Made by a program: the position numbers and the translations under genes | Source of the DNA: a virus | Reading direction: 5' to 3' (one strand) | IMG/VR virus record: IMGVR_UViG_3300020057_001232 | Span: 54,062 to 118,061 of that record | Length of the DNA stretch: 64,000 bases | The notes under the pieces: generated by a model | The model's database searches: none | What the model was told of the DNA's origin: nothing | Seen by the model: only the letters and a program-made list of their open reading frames with translations | In this document: positions 57 to 60,123 of the stretch, one piece after another | Layout: every line of letters starts with the position of its first letter | Numbering within the stretch: the stretch's first letter is position 1

Positions 57-194
57 GTGAGGTGGTCCCCTCAGCTTACGTTTACAAGCAAAAGTAGCTC
101 ACTTGGTAGAGCAAGACTCGTTCAAAGTTTAGGTAATCGGTTCAACTCCGATCTATTGCAACAATATAAAACGTAGACAACTTGGACCACCTAC
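57..194 (+). ncRNA. Y RNA-like structured RNA #1 with a canonically ordered tRNA-like domain (88-160) inside a long closing stem
   Basis: AGGTGGTCC (60-68) pairs with GGACCACCT (184-192). CCTC/ACTT internal loop; TACGTT/AACGTA stem; TACAAGCA. Cloverleaf: GCAAAAG/CTATTGC acceptor (1 mismatch), GCTC/GAGC D-arm, AGACT-CGTTCAA-AGTTT anticodon arm (TTC, atypical G33), ATCGG-TTCAACT-CCGAT T-arm. No CCA. Confidence 0.8.
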
Positions 195-200
195 TCTCAT

Positions 201-226
201 AACCCGCACGAGCGGGTTTTTCTTTT
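201..226 (+). terminator. intrinsic terminator after RNA #1
   Basis: AACCCGC-acga-GCGGGTT followed by TTTCTTTT. Confidence 0.8.
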
Positions 227-235
227 GGTGAAAGC

Positions 236-1096
236 ATGTTGAATTTTACAGCACTAGCCAAACCCGTAAGAGTCGTTGTCCCGATTCTCAACCGCTCTTT
301 TACTTACAACAAGAAGCTTTACAAAATAGGTGTAGACGATGGCTGGTGGCAGGTGGAGCTTCAAGGCAATAAAGCGACGGCTATTGAAACACATCTATGG
401 ACCGACCCCCCTCGGAATGCTTTACGGGGGGTTAGTTACGGCACGAGAGTTGTTTTTTCACATTTTGAAGTGGCTCGCCGCAAATATTCGCTGGACGTTA
501 TAGCCCCTCTTGAATTTCCTAATGTTGAAACTTTCGCAAGTATTTTCGTCATGGTGTGGGAAGATAACCGCACCTACTACGTGATGCCTTGCTACGCAGA
601 CTTCAAGACGGTCTACATCAAAGATCTCCTTGACGACAATTTAACCCTTGAAAACGTGAAAGAGATAACTCCCGAGCTGCGGACAGTGTTTCTTTTTCAT
701 GCACTTGAACGCATCGAGATTCGCAAAAAGCTCGAAGAGCTTGAGAAGATCAAACATGAAGAGGAAATGAAACAGACCGTAGAAGGTCGCCTTCGGTTTG
801 CCTTTGATCGCTCTGGAGCTACGATCACTGAGTATCACGTAGGCAATGGTCGCATTGAGGTGACATGGAGCGTTCCGGGAGCAGGCAGTTTCAACTCTGT
901 CCTCGATGACAAAACCTTTATGGTCCTCGAAGCGGGCTACTGTATGTCAGGAGATGACCGTCGTCACAACGTCACAAGTATGGTAAAGACGGCGGAAGAC
1001 TACCACGCACGCCGTCTCGTCCATAGAACTCGTGGTCGCACGTTCGACCGCACCTTAGACCCTCACGAGGAACGTGATTATGACTACGACGATTAA
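236..1096 (+). CDS. conserved hypothetical protein next to the JAB/E1 module
   Basis: 286 aa with a coiled-coil and C-terminal 'VLEAGYCMSGDD' motif; first gene of a tightly packed operon. Confidence 0.7.
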   Translation: MLNFTALAKPVRVVVPILNRSFTYNKKLYKIGVDDGWWQVELQGNKATAIETHLWTDPPRNALRGVSYGTRVVFSHFEVARRKYSLDVIAPLEFPNVETFASIFVMVWEDNRTYYVMPCYADFKTVYIKDLLDDNLTLENVKEITPELRTVFLFHALERIEIRKKLEELEKIKHEEEMKQTVEGRLRFAFDRSGATITEYHVGNGRIEVTWSVPGAGSFNSVLDDKTFMVLEAGYCMSGDDRRHNVTSMVKTAEDYHARRLVHRTRGRTFDRTLDPHEERDYDYDD

Positions 1097-1100
1097 TGAT

Positions 1101-1571
1101 ATGCCGACTTTTCACCGAGAGAGCAGCCTCGTCACGTACTCTTCTCTGCCGCAAATTCTGCGGAAGAAGGTGTCGCTAAGCTTAGGCACGCCGGGAACCG
1201 TAGAGTTCGACTTCTTAGAAGTGTGGGAGTTCTTCAAAAAAGTGAAGACGCACGACGACTACGAGTTCTCCAATTGGCAGTTTTTCCACGTCCACCCTCC
1301 CGGACTTAACTGTGCGTCGGGGCTTGATATCGAATGTGCTAAGGGTCTAGCTTTAGCTTTCGGTCACCCGCTCTACTTCAGCATTGTGACCTTTGGAGCC
1401 AACGCCGAAGAACGCACGGTAACAAGCTTCGTCGCTTCGCCAAGCGGGCTAGAGCAGCTCTCTCCTACGAGTAACATCAATTACTTGAAGGCTTCTTATT
1501 TAAGCAAGTCAGAAGCCGAAGATCTATATTGGATGAGTTACACAAGCGGGGAAGATTTGTGTCAGAAATAA
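1101..1571 (+). CDS. JAB/MPN-like metallo-isopeptidase (deubiquitinase-like)
   Basis: HVHP-x5-S-x2-D matches the JAMM HxH-x(n)-S-x2-D pattern; directly upstream of E1. ORF is open from 1074. Confidence 0.65.
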   Translation: MPTFHRESSLVTYSSLPQILRKKVSLSLGTPGTVEFDFLEVWEFFKKVKTHDDYEFSNWQFFHVHPPGLNCASGLDIECAKGLALAFGHPLYFSIVTFGANAEERTVTSFVASPSGLEQLSPTSNINYLKASYLSKSEAEDLYWMSYTSGEDLCQK

Positions 1572-2146
1572 ACAAAGTTACAGTGCTTGGTCTAGGAGCA
1601 ATCGGTAGCAATCTTCTTCTACAGTTAGCTAAAACACTTCCAGATTTGCAGTATGTCGGCATCGACTACGACAAAGTGGAAGTGCGTAACATTGGTCCGC
1701 AAGCTTACATGACGGAACACGTAAATGCACCTAAGGCAAAAGCTTTAGCAGCAGTTATTGCAAGATATGCAAGACGTGCTCGCTACCAAGCTGTAGATAA
1801 GAAACTTACTGAAGTCTACAAGCCGGAACCGAACGAACTCGTCCTTGATTGCTTTGACAACACAGCTTCTAGAAAGCTGACAACCGTCGAAGGTCATGTG
1901 CTCCATGTCGGCTTTTCCCCTTTCTATTCGGCGGAAGCTATATGGTCGCCGCACTTTGAGCCAGCGGGGGATGTTCCCGCTGATGCTCCCGACATCTGTA
2001 CGATGGCTGGTGCTACACCCTTCATCCACTTCGTTGTAAACGCGGCAGCTTTACTTGTCGTAAATTTTGTCTTGAACGGAATCAAGAGAGACCTTATAGT
2101 GATCGGATCAATCCAAAACGGTTTTAACTTGAGGTATCTATCTTGA
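1529..2146 (+). CDS. ThiF/E1-like adenylyltransferase
   Basis: GLGAIGS, IDYDKVEVRNIGPQ, KAKAL, DCFDN..SR motifs; candidate catalytic Cys in 'DICT'. Likely GTG start at 1559. Confidence 0.88.
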   Translation: MDELHKRGRFVSEINKVTVLGLGAIGSNLLLQLAKTLPDLQYVGIDYDKVEVRNIGPQAYMTEHVNAPKAKALAAVIARYARRARYQAVDKKLTEVYKPEPNELVLDCFDNTASRKLTTVEGHVLHVGFSPFYSAEAIWSPHFEPAGDVPADAPDICTMAGATPFIHFVVNAAALLVVNFVLNGIKRDLIVIGSIQNGFNLRYLS

Positions 2147-2903: not shown

Positions 2904-3906
2904 CCGCAGCGGCAACGTCAGGACTTTGCCACTTCTTGACGCTGCCTTTGACCCAAACAAGTCGCAGCTCTTTTCGCCCCTCGCCACAATACCGCCAACC
3001 TAAATGGGCAGCGGAAGACCAACTATCGTCTTGATAGTTTTTGTCTTTTAGCCAGTTGTAACCGATGAGCATGATCTTAGCTTGGCTGAGGTCTTTGTCT
3101 GCTCGTAGGATTTCCTTGCCGCTAGCAGATTTCAATCGAACTTCGTTTACGAACTCTCTGATATCAGGTTTGCCGCTGTGGAGATAAGCGACGGTGTTGA
3201 GCATGATAGGTACGTGGTAGACGTAGAAGTCTTGTCCTACGATTGTCTTCTCTTCGGGGTGGTCAACCAAGAACTCCATCTTCTTGTAGCCTTTGCCTTT
3301 GAAGGCGTCCGACAAACGGATCTCTTTGTCTTTAGGCACCGTTTTAAACGTGTAACAGCGGTTGTAGTTTTTGTCGATCCAAGCAAAGAAGATTACGCTG
3401 TCGTCGGGTGTGGCGTTAGGGTAGCCGCCTTTGACACGGTGATGAGCAGGGATCTTGTTGAAAGGTCCGATGTAATACCAAAAGCTGTTTAACTCGTCTC
3501 CGTCATCGTCTTTGATGTAGGAAGGCAATTGCACGAAGCCGCTCGCGAACTCCGGCATGTCGGCAAAGCGTAGCTTGTCGAGGCACACCTTCTTGAACTT
3601 CTCAAAGAAGCGGTCTTCGAAGAGGTGAACTTTTTCGTCGCCGTAAGCATCGTAGCAACAAAGCACGTTGGCGAAGAAAATGCCTACGTCAGTGAAGAAA
3701 AGTTTCCCAAACAACATCTCGATCATCATGACGAGCTGCGGTCTCTTCTCTTCCACCTCGTACTTGCCCGTTCTTACGTGATCTACAAGCTTCTTCGTCA
3801 AGTAGTTGACACACCCTTTTGACGGGACCAGATCCCGCATTAGCGATTTCCAGTCAGGCTCCCGCTGCTCTTTCAAGATCTCAGGCAAAAACTTAGTAAC
3901 CCGCAA
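2809..3906 (-). CDS. hypothetical protein
   Basis: 365-aa ORF, GGAGG RBS upstream of a TTG start. Confidence 0.65.
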   Translation of the reverse strand: MRVTKFLPEILKEQREPDWKSLMRDLVPSKGCVNYLTKKLVDHVRTGKYEVEEKRPQLVMMIEMLFGKLFFTDVGIFFANVLCCYDAYGDEKVHLFEDRFFEKFKKVCLDKLRFADMPEFASGFVQLPSYIKDDDGDELNSFWYYIGPFNKIPAHHRVKGGYPNATPDDSVIFFAWIDKNYNRCYTFKTVPKDKEIRLSDAFKGKGYKKMEFLVDHPEEKTIVGQDFYVYHVPIMLNTVAYLHSGKPDIREFVNEVRLKSASGKEILRADKDLSQAKIMLIGYNWLKDKNYQDDSWSSAAHLGWRYCGEGRKELRLVWVKGSVKKWQSPDVAAAVTSPDTHSTLPVEHYNTFQTSQDPTADTGRI

Positions 3907-4086
3907 GACGTAACCTCCAAAGCTTGTTGGCTTCTTCTAACATACCTAGCCTGCCTAAGCCCTTAAAAAATAACACCTCTTATAAATCAGGTGGTTAAGT
4001 TATTTACTCTAAAGCTTACAATAAAGATGCCGATACAATAATAGGCATTTACAATATTATTAAAGGGGTTCTTATAATCCATTTAC

Positions 4087-42768: not shown

Positions 42769-44130
42769 ATGTCAGCAACGAAATACACATACTCGATAGC
42801 AGCAGACACCGCCTCTGGGCTCGTTAATACGGATTCCTTGTCTAGTCAAATACAGGCTTCCGCAATTGTAATTGTCCTAGACTACATTAACTCTAGCGGT
42901 GACGTGCTTGATGTTTGGATGAAGGCTGCTTTGTCAGGCGGCGATGAAACTATTCTGGATTCAGTAGTGGAGGCACACCTCGGGGTTGCTCCCCCAGATT
43001 TAGCCCAGCCGGTTGTTGTTTCCAACTTTCCTGCGCAGGTACTAGGTGCTTCAGGTGCTCCCATTGTTGAGCAAGGTCACTTGACAGGGGTCATTGGATC
43101 GAAAGCGGTGTCAATTGTTTCTCCTAACTTGGGAAACCGTTGTACTTGGTATCAAAAGTCAGTGAAGGTTACCGCAGAAACACTCACCAACTCGGGCAAC
43201 GACCTTCTTTTCACTAGCGTCAATCCTTGGTGGATTGACATCTACAACCCCAAGCTAACGTACAGCCACAAGCAACTACCTAAACGAGACGCTTCCTTCG
43301 GCAGGCACTCAGATTGGGCAGTTCTAGTTTATGTTGACGGAGTTCTACAAACTAGTGGTTACACCCTTAATTATGTGAACGGAACGGTTACGTTTGCAGC
43401 GTCTAAAGCAGGAAACACAATCACGACAACTTATTGGCATACCAACGGTGTAGCTAACTGCTCTGAGTGGTTATTTAGTCCAGCAGCAGGGAAGAAGTTC
43501 ATTATCAGTTGTGTTGAACTTCAGTATTCAATGAACATGCCAGCCACCTTCGACACGATTAGGTTTGAGGTATGGGGTGGCGCTCCTCTTGCCCAATATT
43601 CTGGCAACGTAGCTCCCGCTTCTACAGTGTCTGCGGACTCTAGTATTTGTTATCCAGGAATTCAACCTCAACGAACAACCGTAAGCTCAGACTTTACGCA
43701 GCCTGCGGCAGGCGCGACGGTTACTGTAACAGTGGGATCGACCACTGGAATGGCTCCTGGACAAGCCCTATTCATCACAGGTGGTGGGTTTTACGGGATT
43801 GGAGCCGTACTAAACGCAACTACTCTCGTTCTACAAAACTTGGGGTTCGAAAGCTTTTCAGACGCTGTTTACGATTTAGGTTTCGGACAGTTTAGAGCTG
43901 ACTACAGAAACGTCTGGGATATTTTGAATACATCGAACAACCAACAGTCGGGCATAGTTCCTAAACACAGTGATATGCAGAACGACCTATTCATAGCTCC
44001 TTATAACTACACACAGGCGTCGGTATTCGACTCCGCATTAAACGCTACTCTTAGAGTCTGCTTGAAAGCTGATACTCCTATTGCTGATATAGAAATCGCT
44101 TCGGCAACCTTCTACATCCAAATTGTCTAA
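42769..44130 (+). CDS. virion structural protein
   Basis: Beta-rich; 'VYVDGVLQTSGYTLNYVNGTVTF'. Confidence 0.65.
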   Translation: MSATKYTYSIAADTASGLVNTDSLSSQIQASAIVIVLDYINSSGDVLDVWMKAALSGGDETILDSVVEAHLGVAPPDLAQPVVVSNFPAQVLGASGAPIVEQGHLTGVIGSKAVSIVSPNLGNRCTWYQKSVKVTAETLTNSGNDLLFTSVNPWWIDIYNPKLTYSHKQLPKRDASFGRHSDWAVLVYVDGVLQTSGYTLNYVNGTVTFAASKAGNTITTTYWHTNGVANCSEWLFSPAAGKKFIISCVELQYSMNMPATFDTIRFEVWGGAPLAQYSGNVAPASTVSADSSICYPGIQPQRTTVSSDFTQPAAGATVTVTVGSTTGMAPGQALFITGGGFYGIGAVLNATTLVLQNLGFESFSDAVYDLGFGQFRADYRNVWDILNTSNNQQSGIVPKHSDMQNDLFIAPYNYTQASVFDSALNATLRVCLKADTPIADIEIASATFYIQIV

Positions 44131-44142
44131 GGAAGTTTATAG

Positions 44143-44820
44143 ATGCTAACCAAGTTTTTAAATTGGTTCAAAACGACAAGCTTATGGGTAAGACTTGCGC
44201 GTCACACAATTGCTCATTTTACCTTCAGGCTTTTTGGCTACCCCAAATTCCCCATCGAAAAATACTTCGACATCGTAGACGCAATGACGTTAGACCCCGA
44301 CGCACTTTACTCTTTCGTGAGTGCTGACAAGTCGTCTTTAGCTTGGCGTCTGAACCACTTCATCACTGGTGCGTTTTGGGGTCATGCAGGCATCGTCCTC
44401 TTCGAGGGTGGGAAGCCTACGGCGTGGCACATGAAAGGCAATGGTCTTAACGGGTGGCACCTCTTAGACATCCTGAAGGAGTGCGACAACTTCGCTTTGG
44501 TGAAGCTACCCCTCCATGGTGCAGATTTGACTGAAGCCAAAAGACGCCTGGAGGTTCTCAAAAATGCGCCTCTGGTAGCTTACGACTATCAGTTAGAGCT
44601 AACGCCTGATGTTCTAGATTTCTTACAGCTTGGAGCGCCGATCGAAGAAGGCGCGAAGCCTCTAAAGATCTACTGTTCGGAGCTTAACTACGCAATCTGC
44701 TACGGACTGATTAAAGATCCAACTTGGAAAGGGTACTGGGAGCCCCGCGTAAAAGTCGGGATGCACGTCTTTGAGCCTGACCAAGTTTATGCTGGCGGTC
44801 CTGTTGTGTTTGAAGATTGA
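44143..44820 (+). CDS. permuted papain-like NlpC/P60 (YiiX/YebB-like) enzyme
   Basis: WGHAGI (His) precedes YDY and IYCSEL (Cys). Confidence 0.75.
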   Translation: MLTKFLNWFKTTSLWVRLARHTIAHFTFRLFGYPKFPIEKYFDIVDAMTLDPDALYSFVSADKSSLAWRLNHFITGAFWGHAGIVLFEGGKPTAWHMKGNGLNGWHLLDILKECDNFALVKLPLHGADLTEAKRRLEVLKNAPLVAYDYQLELTPDVLDFLQLGAPIEEGAKPLKIYCSELNYAICYGLIKDPTWKGYWEPRVKVGMHVFEPDQVYAGGPVVFED

Positions 44821-44907
44821 CACAATACTTGTTTGACAATTTAAACGTTTGACGAGAAGCTTTGAGCTAAGATCAGACTTGCAATTACCTTTACTTGGGA
44901 GCAAAGC

Positions 44908-46233
44908 ATGGAAGCTATTGAGGGACATTTGTTCTCTCTGTGGGCAGATATCTCGCATTTCTTCGGTCAGTACGAACTCAACGAAGGCATGTTGTGGATT
45001 TTTTTAGGCACTTACGCCTTTACGTTGATCACCGACTTAGGGCGCACGACTCTAGAAGTTTTTTTCAACTTCTTTCGTCGTCCTGGAAATCCGCCTAGGG
45101 TTAAGTTGGAGACCTCTGAGTGCGCTATTGTAATCCCTTGTTACAACAGCGATGAGGTCATCAAAGAAACACTCGACACATTGCCTTCTGGTTACAAGAT
45201 CTACGCCGTAGCGAATGGCTGCACAGACCGCACGATGGCGATTTTGCAGGAGTGCTCCACATATCTCCCGAACCTGGAAGTTATCAACACGGCAGTGCCG
45301 GGTAAGATCCGCGCAGTCCTTTTAGGAGCGCTCAAAGCGCGCAAAGACGGCTACTCACACTTCATGCTGCTCGATGACGACATCCAGTGGTGTAAAGAAG
45401 CTGACGGCTCGCCGCAACCGATCACAGTCTATAACAAGGCAAAAGCTGTAACAGCTCTACCTGTCGTCCCTAGCAAGGTTGATCTCAACTGGATTCGCAG
45501 CGTTCAAGCCGTCGAGTATCAAATGATGTGTGCTTCTAAGAGAGCGCAAGGTAACTTAGGCAACGTGATTATGGCGTCGGGTGCGGCAGGCATCTACACG
45601 CTTAAGACCTTCATCGACTCCATGCAAGATCACGACGGCGAACATGTCGGCGACGACCTTCAGTGCAGCTATATTCACCACGTAAAAGGCTACAAAATCG
45701 ACTTCAACTCGGAGGCGGTGGTCCAAACACACCCGCCTGTTACGCTTGGAAGTTGGTGGAAACAAAGAGCAAAACGCTGGGAAGCATCACCAGTTTTTAA
45801 CCTAGCGTGGTCCGCTAAGATTATATGTGCCCCACTTTCCAAGGAATTAAGCCCTGGGTGGTGGATTAGAGGCGTGACTTTTTATCGTGCCTTCGTAATT
45901 GTGAACGATCTTCTGCGTTGTTACAGCTTACCGTTTGTGCTGCTTTTTTCACCACATCTCGTTTTAGGCGTTTGGGCAATTACTTATTGCAGTGTACTAG
46001 CGAAGCTGGTAGCTTTTAGATACTTTTTCCAACAAGAGAGCTATGTCAAAATTGACGGAATAACCGTTGCTTCGATCCTAACGTATCCCCTCTATGGAGC
46101 TATGATGTGGATGAGCAGGGTTTATGCACTGCCTAAGGGCATCGCTCTTAACTGGAAATATTACGGCAAAGGTTCAAGGAAAGTTTCAACATTGGCATCT
46201 AAAATGCCAGAACTAGAAGGGGAGATCTTATGA
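44908..46233 (+). CDS. membrane GT2 processive glycosyltransferase (PgaC/hyaluronan-synthase-like)
   Basis: IPCYN, LDDD, SGAAGIY, GDD, QRAKRW (QxxRW-like); N- and C-terminal TM helices. Confidence 0.85.
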   Translation: MEAIEGHLFSLWADISHFFGQYELNEGMLWIFLGTYAFTLITDLGRTTLEVFFNFFRRPGNPPRVKLETSECAIVIPCYNSDEVIKETLDTLPSGYKIYAVANGCTDRTMAILQECSTYLPNLEVINTAVPGKIRAVLLGALKARKDGYSHFMLLDDDIQWCKEADGSPQPITVYNKAKAVTALPVVPSKVDLNWIRSVQAVEYQMMCASKRAQGNLGNVIMASGAAGIYTLKTFIDSMQDHDGEHVGDDLQCSYIHHVKGYKIDFNSEAVVQTHPPVTLGSWWKQRAKRWEASPVFNLAWSAKIICAPLSKELSPGWWIRGVTFYRAFVIVNDLLRCYSLPFVLLFSPHLVLGVWAITYCSVLAKLVAFRYFFQQESYVKIDGITVASILTYPLYGAMMWMSRVYALPKGIALNWKYYGKGSRKVSTLASKMPELEGEIL

Positions 46234-48473: not shown

Positions 48474-48716
48474 ATGCAATTCAAACACTACTGTGAAGCT
48501 CCCCATAGACCGCTAGATGCGCTCGCGCCTAGCATCTTTCTTGCTGGTGGCATAACGGGTTGCCCTCAGTGGCAATCCACAGTCACAAATAAGTTGCTGT
48601 CTGAGGATGCTAGCGGAGGCGTGCTCTACAATCCTCGTCGTGCTGATTTTCCAATGAGTGACCCTACAGCAGCTCAAGCTCAGTTCGACGGTTTTCGTCT
48701 TCCCAAGATTAACTGA
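48474..48716 (+). pseudogene. 3'-truncated nucleoside 2-deoxyribosyltransferase-like gene
   Basis: SIFLAGGITGCPQWQ...LYNPRR.DF then ends at 80 aa. Confidence 0.6.
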
Positions 48717-48730
48717 AAAATGGGGTTATC

Positions 48731-49636
48731 TTGAGGTTTGTAAATAAAATTCATGCGGCTCTATCTCGCGTCCTTTACCATAAAACAAATGAAACTAATG
48801 CGATTAAAATTCTAAAAGACCGTAAATTTAGACTCTCCACCTGGTTAGGTGGGTCGGGTGTAGATAAAGGGTCTGAGAAGCTTTGGTTTTTATCTACTTC
48901 TACACGTCCCGGAGCCTTCAAGAAGGGTAGTTCTGGAGTAGTTTTTGTTTTAGATGGAAGCAGTATTAATAAAGACTATGAGGGCGATCCATTTGACTAC
49001 TGGGGGGAGGCTTACCATAAAGCCTCTGGTGGTGACACGGATGAAGCAGAGGAGAGAGTTTACTCAGATAAGCCGCTTATACCTATTCACTATATAACTG
49101 AGATACATGCGGACTGGTATATCGGTAATAAAGGTTATGAAGCTCATGCTTATAAAAGACACCGAGACCTTACCTTACTTGCTAAAAAACTAAATATTCC
49201 AATTTACTGGTACGAGAGCCATAAAAGTTTAGACTCCCTAAATAAACAAGAAGCTAAGAAGTTTTCGGACTTCCCCAAGGGACCAGAACTAGAACCTGAA
49301 GAAAGAGACTACCAAACTGGAAGGTCTAACCGTGAGGGTAGCGTTTCCAAGTATTTCTATGAGAAATGGAAAGCACTACTAAGCATCGAACCCGCTAAGT
49401 CTAAAAAAGACCTACCGTTTAAGAACATGTATCAATACCTCTCTAGCTATAGTGACGGTCATACCGGGTTTAAATCCGATATCCACAATGCCTCTAAAGG
49501 TGGAGAAGCTGGTGAGCTGAAATACATATATAAATTACAAAAACAAATGGAACGTGTGGGAGCTAAAGACTTCAAAGAGTTCTACTGGAAGATGATAGAT
49601 AAACTATATAACAATCTTTTAAAAGAACCTGGTTGA
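48731..49636 (+). CDS. putative virion protein with ADP-ribosyltransferase-like motifs
   Basis: LYHKT, FLSTS, EAEE; leader MRFVNKIHAA; visibly more AT-rich than neighbours. Confidence 0.55.
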   Translation: MRFVNKIHAALSRVLYHKTNETNAIKILKDRKFRLSTWLGGSGVDKGSEKLWFLSTSTRPGAFKKGSSGVVFVLDGSSINKDYEGDPFDYWGEAYHKASGGDTDEAEERVYSDKPLIPIHYITEIHADWYIGNKGYEAHAYKRHRDLTLLAKKLNIPIYWYESHKSLDSLNKQEAKKFSDFPKGPELEPEERDYQTGRSNREGSVSKYFYEKWKALLSIEPAKSKKDLPFKNMYQYLSSYSDGHTGFKSDIHNASKGGEAGELKYIYKLQKQMERVGAKDFKEFYWKMIDKLYNNLLKEPG

Positions 49637-49671
49637 TTCTATTATGAAGTTGTAGGTCGGGTGACTGCCCG

Positions 49672-50358
49672 TCACGCCTGCGTTGTAGGCATAAGCCAAA
49701 GCTTGTTGCCGTAGAAGAGAGCGTCACTGACTGCTGGAAACATAGCTAAGTAGCGCAGAGTCGTAATCGTACTGTGAGCAAAGCAACGCTTTAGCTCTTC
49801 TCTCTTGCGCTCTACGCTCACGCTCTCCTCAAGCTTTCTGACGATGTGCATGTTGTTGATGGCATCTTTCAACTCTTTGTCCATCTGGAAGTCCTTCGTG
49901 ATAGCAAACCTAATTGCACGCAAAACGCGCAAGGCATCTTCGTTCAGACGGTCATACGCAGAGCCTACAGCGCGTAGCGTGAGCATTCGAACGTCTTCAA
50001 GCCCGTTGTGGGGGTCAATCAAGTTGCCGTCAGCGTCTTCTGCCATAGCATTGACGGTGAAATCCCTACGACGAAGGTCGTCATAGAGAGTACCAGGCTC
50101 TACGGTGTCAGGGCGTCTGCCGTCTGTATAGTTGCTTTCTTTGCGGCAAAGTACGTAGTCGGCAGCATCGCCATCGTGAAGCTTTGCGCGCACCGTCAAA
50201 AATTGCGGTGAGGTCAAGAAGATTTTGCCACGCTCTGCGATCCAAGCGACCATAGCCTCAAAGGACGGCGCTTCTACGGCGTAGTCAAGGTCTTTCGGTT
50301 CAATGCCTAAAAGTCTGTCACGGACGCTGCCTCCGACGAGATAAGCTTGGATCGTCAT
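49672..50358 (-). CDS. cca: class II tRNA nucleotidyltransferase (CCA-adding/poly(A) polymerase family), short form
   Basis: VGGSVRD..DLDY, RRDFTVNAMA, EDALRVLRAIRF. Confidence 0.88.
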   Translation of the reverse strand: MTIQAYLVGGSVRDRLLGIEPKDLDYAVEAPSFEAMVAWIAERGKIFLTSPQFLTVRAKLHDGDAADYVLCRKESNYTDGRRPDTVEPGTLYDDLRRRDFTVNAMAEDADGNLIDPHNGLEDVRMLTLRAVGSAYDRLNEDALRVLRAIRFAITKDFQMDKELKDAINNMHIVRKLEESVSVERKREELKRCFAHSTITTLRYLAMFPAVSDALFYGNKLWLMPTTQA

Positions 50359-50474
50359 AAATGCCCTCACAAAAGTTAGCAACGACTACCTTCGCATGAA
50401 TTTTTTGCGGGAAGAAGCGTGGAGTTGCTTGACGCTCACATTTCCTTGTACACTGATCTCAGTCAATCCTTTGA

Positions 50475-50551
50475 GGGTCTGTAGCTCAATTGGCTAGAGC
50501 GCCGCGTTTACATCGCGGAGGTTGTGAGATCGTGCCTCACCGGACCTACCA
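50475..50551 (+). tRNA. tRNA-Val(TAC)
   Basis: GGGTCTG/CGGACCT, CCGCG-TTTACAT-CGCGG, atypical T-loop ATCGTGC, ACCA end. Confidence 0.88.
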
Positions 50552-50589
50552 TTTCCCCGACAAATCTGAAAAACCGCTGGAGACGACGC

Positions 50590-51291
50590 ATGGATCGTGA
50601 AGTTCGAGTCCGCTATTGGCAGAAGGGAAAGCCTAAAGACGAGTTGTGCGGCATACTCGAAGACCTAAAGAAGGGCGACGTTTTCTATCTCGAAGACGGC
50701 GGAAACTCCGACAACCTTCTCATCGCCTTAATGGACGCCGATGTCAAAGAGACATCAGTCCATGTCCCCTGCGAGGATTACAAGAATATTTTCGAGAAGC
50801 TTTTCGGTGAGCGGGAAACCGACTCCGAAGGCTACATGAAGTTTAGCCGCTGCGAAGTAGAACTTTTCAAGCACGGCTTTGAAATAAGTTACAGTGCGAA
50901 AGGTTTCGGCTTCGGAAGTCTTACGTTTGCCTTCCGTGAAGGTGAAGGTGAAGAGAAGACGCTTCGCACCGATACCGAATGCACAGGACTCAAAACCCTT
51001 ACGGCACTCTTCCGGGCAGCAGCTCCAGCTCTTGCACAGCTCGCTTTAGAGCGAGATCCATACTACCGTAGCTCCCACGGACTCGGGACTTTAGCTGAAG
51101 ATGATGCCGTGCGCTTAGCGGCTGCGCTTGCAGCCCATGACAAGATGATGGCTGAGATGGATGAGCAAGTCGCTGAGCACCAAGCTCAAGCGGCGAGCTT
51201 GATACCGGAGTCGGTCTCTTCTACGTCGGCTTCCGCAGGATCTTCAGGGTCAGGCTCGTCTGAACCCCAAAGCGAAACGCCCCCTACTTGA
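50590..51291 (+). CDS. hypothetical protein
   Basis: GGAG RBS before ATG 50590. Confidence 0.6.
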   Translation: MDREVRVRYWQKGKPKDELCGILEDLKKGDVFYLEDGGNSDNLLIALMDADVKETSVHVPCEDYKNIFEKLFGERETDSEGYMKFSRCEVELFKHGFEISYSAKGFGFGSLTFAFREGEGEEKTLRTDTECTGLKTLTALFRAAAPALAQLALERDPYYRSSHGLGTLAEDDAVRLAAALAAHDKMMAEMDEQVAEHQAQAASLIPESVSSTSASAGSSGSGSSEPQSETPPT

Positions 51292-51335
51292 CATCCTCCC
51301 CACGGCTAAAGCCGGGGGTTTTACGCTGGGTCTTG
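51288..51335 (-). mobile_element. 48-bp IS200/IS605-type mini-element (variant)
   Basis: TTGACATCCTCCCCACGGCTAAAGCCGGGGGTTTTACGCTGGGTCTTG|ATAA; 4 differences from the other copies. Confidence 0.85.
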
Positions 51336-51402
51336 ATAAAAACGTCAAAGAGTTTTTAGACTATCTCATGAAGTTAAGCGACCAAGACAACTAAACAGCC
51401 TG

Positions 51403-51945
51403 TCATATCCCCGCAAACCTCTCTTCAATGTCGCTGTTACGCATCATCGGCGAGAACATCGGAAATGAAGCGCGGTTGACAATATCGAGACTGAACGGGT
51501 AGACGCCTGCAAGACTCTGCCAAAGCCGTCCACGAGCATCCCACTTAGCTTTCGTAATAAACGCTGGCTTATCGGCTTCGACGTAATGGAAGTCTTCTAA
51601 GTCTTCTCTCTTGTCTAGATAGGAGAAGACCGGCTTGATAAGTTCGCTCGCCACCGGCACGAGGTAAACTCGCCCAAGCTTTTCGTAGAAAGCGATTGCA
51701 GTGTCGAGATCCCAAGCGGCATCGTTGTCGAGGTACTTTTGATGGACAAGCGAGAAGGTGTCTAAGTAAAGACGGCTCTTCGGCAGCTTGCCTTTGTTCT
51801 CTGGGTTATTGACGATACGGTAAACCACTTCGTCGATGAAAGTGCGAGCTTCTTCCACGCCTTCTTTTTGAACGGAGCGGAGGGTTTCAAAGACATTGAA
51901 ACCCCTCTTAATTACATAAGCCTTAGAACGGTCAAGAGTTGGCAT
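51403..51945 (-). CDS. hypothetical protein
   Basis: Operonic with nrd genes. Confidence 0.65.
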   Translation of the reverse strand: MPTLDRSKAYVIKRGFNVFETLRSVQKEGVEEARTFIDEVVYRIVNNPENKGKLPKSRLYLDTFSLVHQKYLDNDAAWDLDTAIAFYEKLGRVYLVPVASELIKPVFSYLDKREDLEDFHYVEADKPAFITKAKWDARGRLWQSLAGVYPFSLDIVNRASFPMFSPMMRNSDIEERFAGI

Positions 51946-55832: not shown

Positions 55833-56378
55833 ATGTACAACTACCTAAACGAGCGGAATATCAAGTCGATCAAGAAGAAGTTGATGAAGGGCATGTCTCT
55901 GACAGAGGTTGCCGAAGACTATGAAACTTCGGTAAGCAACATCGGTCACATAGTCAGCGGCAAGAGCTGGGCAGACATCGTTGTTCCGGGCTTCAAGCAG
56001 TGGCAAAAGAAGAGAGCGACGTTAAAGCTAAAGCGTCGGGAAGCTAGACTTGAAGTAAAGAAGCCCCGCAAGGCAGCCGTTAAGACGGCTAAACGTAAGA
56101 AGAAAGTCGTTGCCCGCAAGGTCAAAGAGGTCGAAGTCAAAGCTCCCGTGGTGAAAAAGACCCCGCTTCTAAAGAAGATGAAGGCGAAGACCAAGAAGAA
56201 GGTCGTAGAGTTCCTTCCTAAGGGAGCGGAAGCCCTGCCCGACGTTCTTCAAGAGCTTCAAGCCGCAACACCTTTAGAGAACTTGGTGATCCGCCTCCGT
56301 AAGAAGACCAAAAAGAAGGCTGACGTTCCACAACTCGAAGCAGCTTCAACCGAAGAAGACACCGACTCGGTTGGCTAA
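55833..56378 (+). CDS. HTH DNA-binding protein with Lys-rich histone-H1-like region
   Basis: 'SLTEVAEDYETSVSNIGHIVSGKSW' followed by K/R/A/V-rich tail. Confidence 0.65.
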   Translation: MYNYLNERNIKSIKKKLMKGMSLTEVAEDYETSVSNIGHIVSGKSWADIVVPGFKQWQKKRATLKLKRREARLEVKKPRKAAVKTAKRKKKVVARKVKEVEVKAPVVKKTPLLKKMKAKTKKKVVEFLPKGAEALPDVLQELQAATPLENLVIRLRKKTKKKADVPQLEAASTEEDTDSVG

Positions 56379-56390
56379 AACAATTACTAG

Positions 56391-56420
56391 AAACCCCGAA
56401 ATCGTTCTCGGGGTTTTTGT
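56391..56420 (+). terminator. intrinsic terminator
   Basis: AAACCCCGA..TCGGGGTTT-TT. Confidence 0.7.
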
Positions 56421-56440
56421 CTTTTCACAGGATTATGTAG

Positions 56441-56743
56441 ATGTCTTTTCACCACCGAACGGTTGCCAAGCAAGAGTTGGAAATCCCCATCTCCCTAACG
56501 ACACGCATCATGCTTTTCATTGGTATGAGGAGAGTCTATCTCGTCTTAGATCCATTCAAATGCACGCACTTCATTGTCTTTAGACCTCAAGACGTAAAAG
56601 ACAACCCTGTCTTAGGCGTGATGTCGTTTCAATGGTCTAAGGGAGCTTTCAATAGAGAGCCCGTAAAAGTCGTCATCGAAGCGGGGCAAGCGATTGTTCC
56701 AAAGCCCGTCCTCAGCTTGGTCCCTAAAACCGTCTCGGAATAA
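56441..56743 (+). CDS. hypothetical protein
   Basis: AGGA RBS, 100 aa. Confidence 0.5.
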   Translation: MSFHHRTVAKQELEIPISLTTRIMLFIGMRRVYLVLDPFKCTHFIVFRPQDVKDNPVLGVMSFQWSKGAFNREPVKVVIEAGQAIVPKPVLSLVPKTVSE

Positions 56744-56924
56744 CTCTACGGAAACGTTCTTTGGTTTCTTTAAGAACGTCTTCCTTAGGCGTAACGACGG
56801 CGTTGCCTGCCCTTAAGGCGTCGAGTTCAGCTCGTGCAATTTCGTACTTACGAGCTTGCTCGACCCTTTCGGCGTCTTCCTTCGCTGTACGGTCTGCTAA
56901 TACTTTGTTCTCGGTGTCTGTCAT
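56724..56924 (-). CDS. hypothetical protein
   Basis: GGAG RBS. Confidence 0.55.
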   Translation of the reverse strand: MTDTENKVLADRTAKEDAERVEQARKYEIARAELDALRAGNAVVTPKEDVLKETKERFRRVIPRRF

Positions 56925-56937
56925 TTCTTCTCCAGGT

Positions 56938-56967
56938 CAAAAAGAAACCCCTCCGTTAAGAGGGGTT
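56938..56967 (-). terminator. intrinsic terminator after RNA #2
   Basis: AACCCCTC/GAGGGGTT stem followed by a U-tract on the minus strand. Confidence 0.8.
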
Positions 56968-56974
56968 AAATTGA

Positions 56975-57112
56975 GAGTTCAAGTAGATCCGGCATTTTTT
57001 GCTTTTGTGCCTGTATTTCAAACGGGTGACTTAACCACTTGTCTACTTTCCCCGAAGAGAAAGGTTGGATTCGAACCAACGGTATGCTTGTAAGCCGAAG
57101 CTGGGGGAACTC
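56975..57112 (-). ncRNA. Y RNA-like structured RNA #2 with circularly permuted tRNA domain (anticodon GAA)
   Basis: GAGTTC-CCCC-AGCTTCGGCT-TACAAGCA; T-arm GTTGG-TTCGAAT-CCAAC; acceptor CTTTCTC-TTCG-GGGAAAG; D-arm; CCCGT-TTGAAAT-ACAGG; then TGCCGGATCT-ACTT-GAACTC. Confidence 0.82.
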
Positions 57113-57414
57113 GTACAAATAAGTGTACACGAGGTCAAAATCAAACACCATACTTTATTCGTCTAGCCCAAATACCGCCGAAGCCACTACAGTTACCAGC
57201 AGTGAAGGTGGCGAAGGCATTGACCGTAGTCGTGTCGGGGTCAGTCGAAGGCAGTGTCACCGTCCTCGTCGTGTTGAAATAGTTGATGTCGTTCGCAGAG
57301 GAAAGAAGCGTGACGTTGGCGTTAGCCAAAAACGCTGACTTAAGGAAATGTCTTTCATTCCCGGTTCAACAAACACGGCTTCGCAATTTCCTGACGGTTA
57401 CACTGGTCTTGGAC

Positions 57415-57462
57415 TTGACATCCTCCCCACGGCTAAAGCAGGGGGTTTTACGCTGAGTTTCG
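57415..57462 (-). mobile_element. 48-bp IS200/IS605-type mini-element
   Basis: Identical to 47674-47721; in frame in small ORF 57348-57494 (+). Confidence 0.85.
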
Positions 57463-57537
57463 ATAAAGATTGCAGTGGAATAGGACTGCTATAAAATCTT
57501 TAGGAAGTGGGGAAGGAGTTAGAAGCAGGAAAAGGGT

Positions 57538-57686
57538 GTAGAACGGTTCAAGTAATGTACGCAAAATTCTTTGCCAGAAAGTATGAGTTTCTGTGCCCTA
57601 CCATTGGGCGAGTTCCCCACAGTGAGGGGAGCCCAGGAATCGAACCTAGATTTGCTTGTATGCGTTCGTCGGGGGAACCGATCTAC
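57538..57686 (-). ncRNA. Y RNA-like structured RNA #3 with circularly permuted tRNA domain (anticodon CAT)
   Basis: GTAGATCGGTTC-CCCC-GACGAACGCA-TACAAGCA; T-arm CTAGG-TTCGATT-CCTGG; GCTCCCC-loop-GGGGAAC; GCCC/GGGC D-arm; CAGAAA-CTCATAC-TTTCTG; then TGCGTACATT-ACTT-GAACCGTTCTAC. Confidence 0.82.
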
Positions 57687-57692
57687 AAAATA

Positions 57693-57722
57693 AGCCTAAC
57701 GTAAGTTCTTACTGGTTGTCAA
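57693..57722 (-). promoter_or_regulatory. sigma70-like promoter for RNA #3
   Basis: TTGACA-N18-TAGGCT, 6 nt before the first paired base. Confidence 0.65.
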
Positions 57723-57737
57723 ACTCTTTTGTGGCTC

Positions 57738-57956
57738 TTAAGCAAGACTATCAAAAACTTCCTTCACACCGTCCCAATAGTCAGCCGTATATTTGGTGTG
57801 GTCAAAGTCTTCCCCGTCTAAGTTCTCGACGAGCATCATATTGAGGTTGTCGTTAAGTTTCTTGTCGAGATCTTTTGCAAGCTCGGAAGCGATCTCTTGC
57901 CCCGCTTTGAAGCCTGGACTTTGTTCGGCTGCCGTAATTTTTTTACAAAAACGCAT
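57738..57956 (-). CDS. small acidic protein with leader motif
   Basis: MRFCKKITAA; coupled to carD. Confidence 0.6.
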   Translation of the reverse strand: MRFCKKITAAEQSPGFKAGQEIASELAKDLDKKLNDNLNMMLVENLDGEDFDHTKYTADYWDGVKEVFDSLA

Positions 57957-58489
57957 CACTTTACCACTTTAAGATGACTGCGCTCTTCCTTAGGAAAGAG
58001 CTTGGCGTTGATAGCACTTTCTACATCTGCCGCCGACTTCTTAAGAACGAGACCTAGCTCTTCTGAGACCAAGCTCATTGACTTATCAAACATCTTCAAT
58101 TCGCCATACGAAAAGTCTTTGTGACTTTTGATACCTGCTAGCTCCATAAGCACTTCGGCGTGATCCTTTGCAGATCCAGTACGAAGCTTATCCATCAAGT
58201 CTCTGAATTGGCGATTCCAAGTCGTAGGACTAGAGTCCTTCGCTTTGATTGAATTGAAAATGCTTTTAGCTTCCGTCTCGGAGATCAGCTTACGGAGCAT
58301 TTCGGCTTCTCTGCCTGGAAGAACGATCAGCGTTGCCGAAGAGTCCGTGATCTTCACGACGATCTTACCCTCTTCAACCTTAGTGATCTTGCCAACGCCG
58401 TGAGCGGGAACAACTACGTCTTCACCGACTTTGTAAGTCGCAGCGGCGACGACGGTGTACTTAGCGGTGATTTTCTTTCTGACGGTCAT
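57956..58489 (-). CDS. carD: CarD/CdnL-family RNA polymerase-binding regulator
   Basis: YKVGEDVVVPAHGVGKI (RID domain), LRKLIS, WNRQFR...KLRTGS. Confidence 0.88.
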   Translation of the reverse strand: MTVRKKITAKYTVVAAATYKVGEDVVVPAHGVGKITKVEEGKIVVKITDSSATLIVLPGREAEMLRKLISETEAKSIFNSIKAKDSSPTTWNRQFRDLMDKLRTGSAKDHAEVLMELAGIKSHKDFSYGELKMFDKSMSLVSEELGLVLKKSAADVESAINAKLFPKEERSHLKVVK

Positions 58490-58550
58490 AGCTGTGCCCT
58501 TTTGGTAGATTCACTTTCAAACTAATCTTCAACTTATTAAGGAAAGTTAT

Positions 58551-58799
58551 ATGCGTAAGGAAGTCATCGCTCTAGGTCAGCATCTCCAAGTTCTCGAAGA
58601 CGCCCGCCGTGCAGGTATCGTATTCGCAGGAAAACTCCGCTCGCTTGCGGCTGATGTTAAGCAGTCTGAGATCAGCGAAAAAGTCTTACAAGAATTTGAA
58701 CAATTTAAAAAAAGTATCAAAAAAGGTCATGAAGTATCAGAAGAGCTAGCCGCTAAGTATTTCCTTAAAGGATTTCAAGAAAGCTACTTCGACGATTAA
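58551..58799 (+). CDS. hypothetical protein
   Basis: AAGGA RBS. Confidence 0.6.
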   Translation: MRKEVIALGQHLQVLEDARRAGIVFAGKLRSLAADVKQSEISEKVLQEFEQFKKSIKKGHEVSEELAAKYFLKGFQESYFDD

Positions 58800-58832
58800 T
58801 GGTAAGCCATAACCCGCAGTATTACCTAGCTT

Positions 58833-58854
58833 CCTGTGGATAACCTGTGGGTAA
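58833..58854. promoter_or_regulatory. tandem DnaA-box-like sites
   Basis: TGTGGATAA (58835-58843, perfect) and TGTGGGTAA (58846-58854). Confidence 0.45.
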
Positions 58855-58869
58855 CTAACTCCTTGAAAA

Positions 58870-60123
58870 TTGCTAGAAATTCGACTACAAGTCCCCCATC
58901 GTCCAAAGCTATTGGTAAAAGGGAGTTTGTCGTTGGGTGTTCAAAATTTCAGCAGCAGCGGCGAGGCTTCGGTTGAGCTTTGGGGAGCCAAAGCTTTTCG
59001 TCTTTTTGAAGCTCGACACTTCTTCTCACACCCCGGCTTCGTCATCACATCGGACGAAAGCCTCACCGTCTTTAAAGAACTAGGCATTGATGCTTTATTA
59101 AGCAGCTTAGATCCCGAAAACCTCGACGAGCTGCTTTTGGTAAGTAGTAAAATCAAGGATCTCGTGGCTGGTTATCCTTTCCCCTCAAGGCTTTCAGAGG
59201 AACTCTCTGGGATTTCCCAGAACAAACGTATTGAATACGCCGTTCGGTCCTCGGCAGTGCTTGAAGATACGCCTCGGCTGAGCTTCGCCGGGCAGTACGA
59301 CAGCTACTTGCATGTCCACCGCAGGGAGCTTGCAGACTACGTTAAGCTCGTTTGGGCATCGCTTTACAGCGCCCGTGCGATCAGCTACCGGCATCACAAC
59401 AACTTGCCTAAGAGTGGGCATTCGATTGCGGTTTTGATCCAAGAGATGTTTGACGGTGTGAGTGGTGTTCTTTTTACGGTGAACCCCGACACGGCTGCTA
59501 ACGAGCTTTTTATCCAAGCTGCTTGGAACGGTGTCGTCAACGGCAAGAGTAATGCTTCGACCTTTATAGTCAAAGATGTCAGCGAGATCAGGGAGCACGC
59601 TCCTTACTTGACTAAGACGGACGTTCAAAGCTTGTACGTCTACGCTCATTGTCTTATGAAGAAATTCGGTCCTGAGCTTGACATCGAGTGGGTAAAAAGT
59701 GAACAGCTCGGCATCATCCCCCTTCAAGTCAGACCTCTTACCAAAGTTAGCTCGGGCACGGTTTATATCCCTTCCAACGGTCAGATCCCTATTTTGATCG
59801 GAGCTGGGATTGGAATGGGGATAACAAGGGGTGAAGTGTACAAACCTGAATCACCATTTGACAAAAACTTTAAACCGGGCTTCATTCTAGTGGCTCGTGA
59901 CACTAGCCCTGATTGGGAACCTCTTATGAGGTTGGCGTCTGCCATCGTAACGGACCACGGCTGCCGGACCTCACACGCAGCTCTCGTTGCGGCTGAGATG
60001 GCTCTGCCTGCGGTTGTGGGTACCAGCGATGCTACTACGTCGCTAGCGAACGGTCAGGTAATTAGTTTGGAAATTTCCGAATCGTTAGGATTCGTTTTTG
60101 GAGGACGGACACACCATGGGTAG
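58870..60123 (+). CDS. PEP synthase/dikinase-like protein (ATP-grasp and phospho-His domains only)
   Basis: AVRSSA..ED...SFAGQY, DIEW, LQVRP, TDHGCRTSHAA; no C-terminal pyruvate-binding barrel. Confidence 0.85.
   Translation: MLEIRLQVPHRPKLLVKGSLSLGVQNFSSSGEASVELWGAKAFRLFEARHFFSHPGFVITSDESLTVFKELGIDALLSSLDPENLDELLLVSSKIKDLVAGYPFPSRLSEELSGISQNKRIEYAVRSSAVLEDTPRLSFAGQYDSYLHVHRRELADYVKLVWASLYSARAISYRHHNNLPKSGHSIAVLIQEMFDGVSGVLFTVNPDTAANELFIQAAWNGVVNGKSNASTFIVKDVSEIREHAPYLTKTDVQSLYVYAHCLMKKFGPELDIEWVKSEQLGIIPLQVRPLTKVSSGTVYIPSNGQIPILIGAGIGMGITRGEVYKPESPFDKNFKPGFILVARDTSPDWEPLMRLASAIVTDHGCRTSHAALVAAEMALPAVVGTSDATTSLANGQVISLEISESLGFVFGGRTHHG

Follow-up and report, generated by a model that had tools for sequence, protein, structure and literature searches.

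Three loci in a stretch of viral DNA raise the question of why one constant RNA stem should carry tRNA-like sequences that are in one case ordinary and in two cases rearranged. The stretch (the window, 64,000 nt) comprises bases 54062-118061 of the 118,061-bp virus record IMGVR_UViG_3300020057_001232, which is ~49% complete, about half a genome. Particles of Ro60 and Y RNA are known to occur in animals, in about 5% of bacteria and in a few phages and, to our knowledge, the purpose of the tRNA-like module of bacterial Y RNAs is still open. The three loci (units A, B and C) belong to a large undescribed family of RNAs, named here handle RNAs after their constant stem, that lies beside a very distant relative of Ro60 and most likely represents a new form of Y RNA.

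Three units with a common handle

Units A, B and C lie at the positions given in the original prediction and share one layout, as had been claimed there. A closing stem (stem 1) is followed by an internal loop (5' CCTC or CCCC, 3' ACTT), a second stem (stem 2), the octamer TACAAGCA, a cargo of 79-90 nt and the 3' strands in mirror order. In each of them the 5' strand of stem 2 measures exactly 10 nt, also as predicted. The 5' half (CCYC-N10-TACAAGCA) was found exactly three times when both strands of the 118,061-bp record were searched, and TACAAGCA by itself in 8 copies. The features of the three units are the following:

57..194, + strand: unit A, open handle flanking a complete tRNA; stem 1 60-68 with 184-192; CCTC 69-72; stem 2 73-82 with 170-179; TACAAGCA 83-90; ACTT 180-183
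88..160, + strand: tRNA-Glu(TTC) within unit A (ARAGORN; Rfam tRNA 51.4 bits)
201..228, + strand: terminator-like hairpin (201-218) and T run after unit A
56946..56967, - strand: terminator-like hairpin and T run after unit B
56975..57112, - strand: unit B, open handle; stem 1 57112-57107 with 56980-56975; CCCC 57106-57103; stem 2 57102-57093 with 56994-56985; TACAAGCA 57092-57085; ACTT 56984-56981
57084-56995, - strand: cargo of unit B, circularly permuted tRNA-Phe(GAA); 7-bp acceptor stem, UUCG-closed
57538..57686, - strand: unit C, open handle; extended stem 1 57686-57675 with 57549-57538; CCCC 57674-57671; stem 2 57670-57661 with 57563-57554; TACAAGCA 57660-57653; ACTT 57553-57550
Within unit C, - strand: cargo, circularly permuted tRNA with CAU anticodon; closed 7-bp acceptor stem

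Anchored by register, unit A reads GTGGTCC, CCTC, AGCTTACGTT, TACAAGCA ... AACGTAGACA, ACTT, GGACCAC, with 7/7 pairs in stem 1. The corresponding layouts are CGAGTTC, CCCC, AGCTTCGGCT, TACAAGCA ... TGCCGGATCT, ACTT, GAACTCT for unit B and TCGGTTC, CCCC, GACGAACGCA, TACAAGCA ... TGCGTACATT, ACTT, GAACCGT for unit C, each with 6/7 pairs in stem 1; stem 2 forms 8/10 pairs in every unit. The stems of A-C differ in sequence and still pair, which had been noted originally and also holds among the relatives described below. Minimum free energy folding recovered the closing stems of A, B and C, and stem 2 in A and B but not in C (z = -2.4, -1.05 and -3.0 for the three units).

The two terminators that had been proposed were found, each as a hairpin with a T run, after A and after B. 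The promoter proposed at one locus was recovered in part: the hexamer TTGACA is visible by eye upstream of unit C at 57722-57717 on the minus strand, but a promoter scan called no full sigma-70 site there. A blastn search of window positions 56000-59000 against a phage collection gave no match.

A Ro60-fold protein encoded upstream of the window

The lead to a protein partner was provided by a related locus (L007/L019), in which four tandem handle RNAs lie directly 3' of a vWA-like gene. The product of this gene is 54% identical to a 543-aa protein encoded at 43784-45415 of the present record, 8.7 kb upstream of the window. The family to which the protein belongs has at least 155 metagenomic members, which are unnamed; many of them are on contigs of more than 100 kb. 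Neither Pfam TROVE (PF05731) nor DUF2828 matched in six frames of the record, about half a genome, or in the 543-aa protein (for TROVE, hmmscan at E<=10), and no Pfam family matched this protein at E<=0.001.

A profile of the family, searched against the sequences in the PDB, had human Ro60 as its sole match at E<=1 (E 1.2e-5, collinear). The Pfam family vWA_Ro60 (PF25045) was matched by 12 of 43 family members, and D354, S356 and S358 of the MIDAS DxSxS motif are invariant across 43 sequences. A single-sequence AlphaFold model of the protein (L016, 785-2413; predicted local distance difference test score, pLDDT, 46) was set aside, being superseded by a model based on an alignment with 43 homologs, which reached a pLDDT of 84.7. 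Foldseek with this model gave Ro60/TROVE structures as all of the first 12 matches listed (ranks 1-13), aligned over their full length (517-621 aligned columns) with template modelling (TM) scores of 0.45-0.63; among them were the Ro60 of phage phiLo (9kop, E 1.3e-10), Xenopus (1yvp, 8.8e-8), human (9nen) and Deinococcus (2nvo, 1.7e-5). Hence, as judged from the structural matches, the family profile, vWA_Ro60 and the MIDAS residues, the modelled 543-aa protein is a Ro60-fold protein beyond the reach of current domain models. A TROVE/Ro60 gene had been suggested as something to look for just upstream of the window, and a gene of that fold is indeed present, at a distance of 8.7 kb.

Handle RNAs beside the Ro60-like gene

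The loci collected as encoding relatives of the 543-aa protein number 73 (550,726 nt), of which 7 are viral, 4 are contigs of metagenome-assembled genomes and 62 are metagenomic. These loci were searched with strict descriptors for the open handle and for the closed, permuted handle, and the matches were distributed as follows:

Strand of the Ro60-like gene: open 64, closed 24
Opposite strand: open 1, closed 0
Shuffled sequences (three shuffles, per replicate): open 0, closed 0.33

At least one handle on the same strand was found beside the Ro60-like gene in 34 of the 73 loci, many of the others being fragments of 1-3 kb. The distance to the gene was <=2.5 kb for 80 of the 88 matches. A covariance model (R1) built from 20 closed handles and run on 55 of the 73 loci gave 42 matches at E<=0.01, all on the strand of the gene and 22 of them outside the training set. 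The units often form arrays with gaps of 8-100 nt, with up to five or more units per locus. R1 also scores across the junctions of adjacent open units, where the 3' half of one meets the 5' half of the next (L080, 1310-1391 and 1895-1964; L030, 3376-3443 and 3467-3535); tandem arrays may thus have more than one folding register, or such junctions may have given rise to the closed forms. No closed handle was detected by R1 in the window (E<=1, filters off). Regarding a first pattern scan of viral sequences, 13 of 15 loci were dismissed as chance matches lacking the 3' half.

Covariation in relatives, which the original prediction had called for, was observed in both stems and in both forms of the handle. 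In 18 open handles, 90.5% of the stem cells pair, compared with 58.7 +/- 2.8% when the 3' strands were swapped (maximum 72.9% in 2000 trials), and in 20 closed handles 88.4% pair, compared with 55.7 +/- 2.2% after shuffling (reached by 0/500 shuffles); these percentages are partly built in, because pairing was a condition in the descriptors used to select the units, a point to be set against the interpretation given below. Independent controls are provided by the strand bias and by the empty shuffled sequences. Most stem positions of the open handles show 3-6 pair types. Since a MAFFT alignment of 19 open units scattered the 3' strand of stem 2, the pairs of the open units were counted by register in a script. 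All 16 pairs of the closed handles vary on both sides; their covariation score was 0.854 vs 0.263, and only 35-44% remained paired when the partner was slid by 1-3 columns.

Conservation of sequence was also seen. Among 80 units the 3' loop was ACTT in 66, ACTC in 9 and CCTT in 5, this loop and motif positions 1-7 being partly fixed by the descriptor. The 5' loop, of 3-5 nt, began with C in 76/80, the pair closing stem 1 was C-G in 54/80, and motif position 8, which the descriptor leaves unconstrained, was A in 57/80.

These data bear on the most trivial explanation, namely that the shared architecture is a functionless repeat, arisen by chance similarity or as a small DNA element, mobile or duplicated, in the vicinity of tRNA genes. 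It is contradicted by the strand bias (88 matches on the gene strand vs 1 on the opposite strand, with about 0 in the shuffles) and by the compensatory changes, pairing being kept while the stem sequences differ. In addition, the family persists on contigs between which the Ro-like proteins share only 26-59% identity. We consider this explanation extremely improbable.

Cargo of the handle RNAs

Unit A encloses a tRNA-Glu(TTC) in normal order, which scored 51.4 bits against Rfam tRNA (RF00005; threshold 29 bits). Its first base, G88, falls inside the handle motif (TACAA|GCA). In B and C the order is T-arm, closed 7-bp acceptor hairpin, D-arm and anticodon arm. In this native order both are below the Rfam tRNA threshold (B, 14.5 bits, E 9.2) and a tRNA was called only after rotation: the cargo of B, rotated in silico, was identified by ARAGORN as Phe-GAA and that of C as Met-CAT. 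B and C thus correspond to full tRNAs whose order is circularly permuted, the break lying at the position of the variable loop, from which the handle extends. The original description of canonical or permuted tRNA cargo is thus accurate, A being normal and B and C permuted.

The cargo classes were counted over 87 non-identical units:

Open, with a tRNA in normal order as cargo (Met, Arg, Phe, Ile, Cys, Leu, Val, Gln, Asn, Glu): 21 units
Open, T-arm first: 27 units
Open, hairpins only: 16 units
Closed: 23 units

Complete permuted tRNAs account for 17 of the 64 distinct open cargos. The closed units represent a third topology, absent from the original prediction, in which the handle is inserted within a normal-order tRNA; a T-arm lies just 3' of the closed handle in 21/23, and when the handle was excised in silico a tRNA was recovered in 20/22. 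The insertion site varies, being in the variable loop, in the anticodon loop or upstream of the anticodon arm. Taken together, the varied cargo and insertion sites indicate that the handle behaves like a portable tag, being placed at any peripheral loop or end that the tRNA fold offers. The tRNA domains had been proposed to be interchangeable, and this is what was found, with normal tRNAs, permuted tRNAs and plain hairpins all serving as cargo. The tagged tRNAs could be compared with ordinary tRNA arrays in only 4 informative loci; the tagged anticodon was missing from the array in 2 and duplicated in 2.

One important question is whether the handle is a maturation signal for private phage tRNAs rather than the module of a stable ribonucleoprotein (RNP), the Ro-like protein then being at most a precursor chaperone. 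In this case the handle would pair leader and trailer (A), join the ends of permuted genes (B, C) or be an intron-like insert (closed units), and it would be cut away, or keep two halves together, to yield functional decoding tRNAs. The 21 open units with normal-order tRNAs, ordinary anticodons and a tRNA 5' end inside UACAA|GCA speak for this, as do the complete permuted tRNAs, the tRNAs obtained on handle removal and the two arrays that lack the tagged anticodon. The flanking, permuted and inserted topologies also parallel the permuted, split and intron-containing tRNA genes of archaea and red algae, in which a helical element, the bulge-helix-bulge motif, is likewise flanking, permuted or inserted. 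That motif consists of a 3-nt bulge, a 4-bp helix and a 3-nt bulge at the junctions. The handle does not show this geometry, having an internal loop of 3-5 nt by 4 nt and then a 10-nt stem, and it differs also in its context, which is that of a bacterial virus and of a Ro60-like gene. Many handle units carry no tRNA at all, 16 of the 64 open ones containing short hairpins alone, which is more in keeping with a tag for docking than with a signal for tRNA processing. Furthermore, in two of the four informative loci the tagged tRNA duplicates an untagged one, the insertion sites vary and would leave long, non-conserved joiners, and the conserved sequence lies within the handle and not at the would-be splice junctions. 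The search for an RtcB gene that had been suggested was unsuccessful: neither RtcB nor RNA_ligase (Rnl-type ligases) matched in six frames of the 118-kb record, about half a genome, and no splicing endonuclease was found in the record. On balance a maturation signal seems unlikely to us.

Comparison with known Y RNAs

According to the available text of PMC4201824, Y RNA genes adjoin Ro60 in more than 250 bacteria and phages, and the GNCGAAN0-1G motif that the YrlA RNAs carry close to their 5' end is the presumed binding site of Rsr. The same text describes that the YrlA of Mycobacterium smegmatis, which has a 7-bp acceptor stem, is cut by RNase P and receives CCA, both halves remaining bound to Rsr (PMC4201824). 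The handle RNAs resemble YrlA with its partner Rsr/Ro60 in the long stem formed by the 5' and 3' ends, in the tRNA-like module with its T-arm, closed acceptor and D-arm order, in the presence of several different RNAs per genome and, for relatives (34 of the 73 loci), in the location of the gene beside a Ro60-fold gene; B and C have, in addition, the 7-bp acceptor stem of the M. smegmatis RNA. In contrast, the handle has the ACUU/CNNN internal loop, the 10-nt stem and UACAAGCA instead of GNCGAA. Unlike YrlA, B and C retain a full anticodon arm and their handle exits at the position of the variable loop, in other members the cargo is a complete tRNA or the handle is closed and lies within a tRNA of normal order, and the candidate protein partner is missed by Pfam TROVE. 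The original prediction had remarked that a GNCGA-type site is lacking; this is correct for A and B, but GACGAA occurs inside stem 2 of C. We read it as a chance occurrence, because GNCGAA was found in the 5' half of 0/64 related open units.

The Rfam YrlA model (RF02553) gave no match at its gathering threshold (69 bits) in the window or the record, and none at unit A. The best partial match was to unit C at 57595-57650 (17.9 bits, E 0.9) and covered model positions 30-81 only, with which T-arm, closed acceptor and D-arm align; this order is present in B and C and not in A. One relative (L005) scored 28.8 bits (E 0.005) against the same model. Rfam Y_RNA had no match at E<=10, and with all of Rfam, at gathering and at E<=10, tRNAs and weak chance matches alone were obtained at the handles. 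The comparison with the Y, YrlA and tRNA models, which had been proposed as a check, thus left the handle without any family, only the tRNA core of A passing. Since GNCGAA is absent and the YrlA match of 17.9 bits is restricted to the tRNA-like part, the handle RNAs are not YrlA members; by analogy, they would work like YrlA while standing outside that family. The divergent Y-like class with a fixed handle that was originally put forward is supported by the Ro60-fold gene, by the handles beside its homologs and by this lack of an Rfam match at the handle.

Metazoan Y RNAs bound by Ro60 (Xenopus, 1YVP) share with the handle RNAs a terminal stem, a conserved distorted helix as the Ro site (in the handle, the predicted one) and a variable loop module. 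On the 3' strand of the Ro-site helix, the Y RNAs of vertebrates have the sequence CUUGAC, which is close to the ACUUG(A/G)AC found here. However, the GGUCCGA of their 5' strand is not conserved in the handles, and the cargo is a tRNA and not a pyrimidine-rich loop. The Thermus phage phiLo provides a viral case: its Ro60 ring binds two Y-like RNAs, Yrl1 and Yrl2 (PDB 9KOP, 9L5Y), which are encoded next to the gene, upstream of it (available text of PMC12135203), and this Ro60 is the top structural match of the 543-aa protein among the matches listed. The sequence identity between the two proteins is only 15-16%. The phiLo RNAs have CGAA in a bulge, and as far as the available text goes they are not described as tRNA-like and no neighbours of the ubiquitin-like (Ubl)/E1/JAB type are mentioned (PMC12135203).

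No description of the handle or of handle-tagged tRNAs was found in the literature; the phage YrlA lists in the supplements of Chen et al. 2014 (PMC4201824), which this search did not cover, may bear on the point. A 2026 preprint on three tRNA-mimic families was considered and, according to the part of its text available, concerns other RNAs.

Handle as a probable docking module

From the RNA family, its covariation, its link to the Ro60-like gene and the fold of the protein we infer the binding, processing and role described in this section. We hold it to be probable that A-C are genes for Y-RNA-like small RNAs, with a very divergent phage Ro60-type ring protein as predicted partner and the handle as docking module. 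The partner would be the 543-aa ring protein, with a predicted HEAT-repeat TROVE-like ring and a vWA domain. Two conserved elements of the handle would be contacted: the asymmetric internal loop (5' C-N2-4, 3' ACUU) with its conserved closing C-G pair, and the presumably single-stranded UACAAGCA. The fixed 10-nt stem between them corresponds to about one helical turn, and therefore both elements would face the same side of the helix and could be read by one protein surface. The handle would be grafted at different sites of the tRNA, around a complete tRNA in A and at the variable-loop position, with the acceptor sealed, in B and C. By analogy with the YrlA of M. smegmatis, B and C, with their 7-bp acceptor stems, are predicted to be cut by RNase P and to receive a CCA tail, and their two halves would be held by the handle and stay bound to the ring protein. 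The RNP might then tether the tRNA-shaped module, or present it, to host or phage enzymes that recognise tRNA; the decoy or tether roles of the original prediction may be of this sort.

Several observations weigh against this docking role, besides the partly built-in pairing percentages. GNCGAA, the canonical Ro-binding motif, is missing from all 64 related open units, neither YrlA nor Y_RNA of Rfam matched at the handle, and Pfam TROVE and DUF2828 fail to recognise the 543-aa protein. The 21 units with apparently ordinary tRNAs have the tRNA 5' end inside the motif, so that RNase P would free the cargo from the handle, in agreement with a precursor. Because the attachment point on the tRNA body differs between units, no single rigid geometry can apply. 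In this genome the units are apart from the Ro60-like gene (A by 8.7 kb, B and C by about 66 kb), and no Ro-like gene was found on the record of L005 (an 88.7 kb fragment, rated 32% complete), which bears a genuine unit. Finally, other conserved neighbours of the gene (286-aa, Ubl-like, JAB-like and ThiF-like) could be the true binder.

There is a small chance that the handle is a Ro-docking tag on real, chargeable tRNAs, and that the ring, possibly under control of the Ubl/E1/JAB proteins, guards, stores or licenses a private tRNA pool during infection. After cutting by RNase P and the addition of CCA, permuted units such as B and C would be two-piece tRNAs clamped by the handle, the closed units would be tRNAs with a giant extra arm, and the pool would be protected, for example, against host anticodon nucleases. 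If this were true, a Ro60 RNP would act directly in translation supply, and split or permuted tRNAs that function would be on record for a bacterial virus for the first time.

Neighbouring genes

Three genes follow unit A in the window:

236..1096, + strand: gene immediately following unit A; 286-aa product without a known family
1074-1571, + strand: 165-aa open reading frame (ORF) with a HxHx7SxxD JAMM-like motif (by eye), no Pfam match
1529-2146, + strand: ThiF/E1-like gene (ThiF PF00899, E 8.1e-12), overlapping the 165-aa ORF

The module, which the original prediction did not include, is split into two sub-loci in this genome. A Ubl-like ORF (ending ...PNSTAG) and then the Ro60-like gene occupy 43358-45415 of the record, and about 9 kb later (window 236-2146 plus unit A) come unit A and the 286-aa, JAMM-like and ThiF/E1-like genes; in relatives the genes of both sub-loci lie together. 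This arrangement suggests that a Ubl conjugation or sulfur-carrier system may be linked with the Ro-like RNP.

Hence, the handle might be recognised by another protein of the module, either the 286-aa protein or the Ubl-like/JAB-like/ThiF-like set, the Ro-like protein being a mere neighbour. One option would be a pathway of tRNA modification that depends on Ubl/E1 and resembles TtuB-TtuC or Urm1-Uba4; Ubl/E1 pairs act as sulfur carriers in tRNA thiolation. In the seven viral loci tested the 286-aa gene accompanies the Ro-like gene in 7/7 and a ThiF-like gene in 6/7, 44/73 loci have, upstream of the Ro-like gene, a Ubl-like ORF with the end ...STAG/SVAG, and unit A is directly 5' of the 286-aa gene. 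Against this, the RNAs cluster right beside the Ro-like gene in most loci, Ro60 is the one fold of the module with an established stem-binding role, and the 286-aa family has no RNA-binding or enzyme fold detectable in Pfam, PDB profile or atlas searches (no Pfam match, no usable atlas match, best PDB profile match E 0.14 to an Ig-like chain). Another binder in place of the Ro-like protein appears quite unlikely to us. The 286-aa protein, whose family has invariant C236, D241 and H244 in a ...GYCMSGDDRRHN... block, could also be a second partner of the handle RNAs, which is mentioned as context.

A few further features were recorded. A 44-nt block (TTTATC.AAAC.CAGCGTAAAACCCCCTGCTTTAGCCGTGGGGA) lies at window 57424-57467 (- strand), downstream of C, and is nearly identical to one downstream of the L005 unit (3873-3916, + strand), the flanks having diverged; its 31-nt core had no match in the other 88 loci with <=3 mismatches. 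The gap of roughly 430 nt between C and B contains no convincing ORF. Between the Ro-like gene and unit A, at record 48580-51685, an AAA+ (MoxR/CobS-like) gene and a gene for a long acidic CobT-like protein were recognised by eye. A tRNA with a CUA anticodon (amber-suppressor type; ARAGORN) is located at record 3115-3185, upstream of the window. In relatives, very large ordinary tRNA arrays, of 15-27 genes within the flanks, occur in L020 (55-2761), L021 (205-2678), L048, L053 and L037, with a tmRNA gene in L020 too, a few kb from the Ro-like locus. In L017 (5806-6005, + strand) a small ORF, cold-shock-domain-like by eye (MSQGKVKWFNEKKGFGFI...), lies between handle units upstream of the Ro-like gene.

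Implications for Ro60 and phage tRNA biology

These results extend Ro60 to a protein clade that domain models have missed, with at least 155 metagenomic members, and associate it with an RNA family whose predicted docking element is different and sharply defined. The presence of a handle accounts for tRNA calls that look "broken" or permuted in large phage genomes, and the handle can be turned into a simple descriptor for annotation. Through these RNAs, Ro60 would be linked to phage tRNA biology and, by conserved synteny, to a Ubl/E1/JAB module. The cargo forms a series from bare hairpins through tRNA mimics to complete tRNAs, in three circular permutations, and this series would be nature's own structure-function experiment on the features that a Y RNA has to present.

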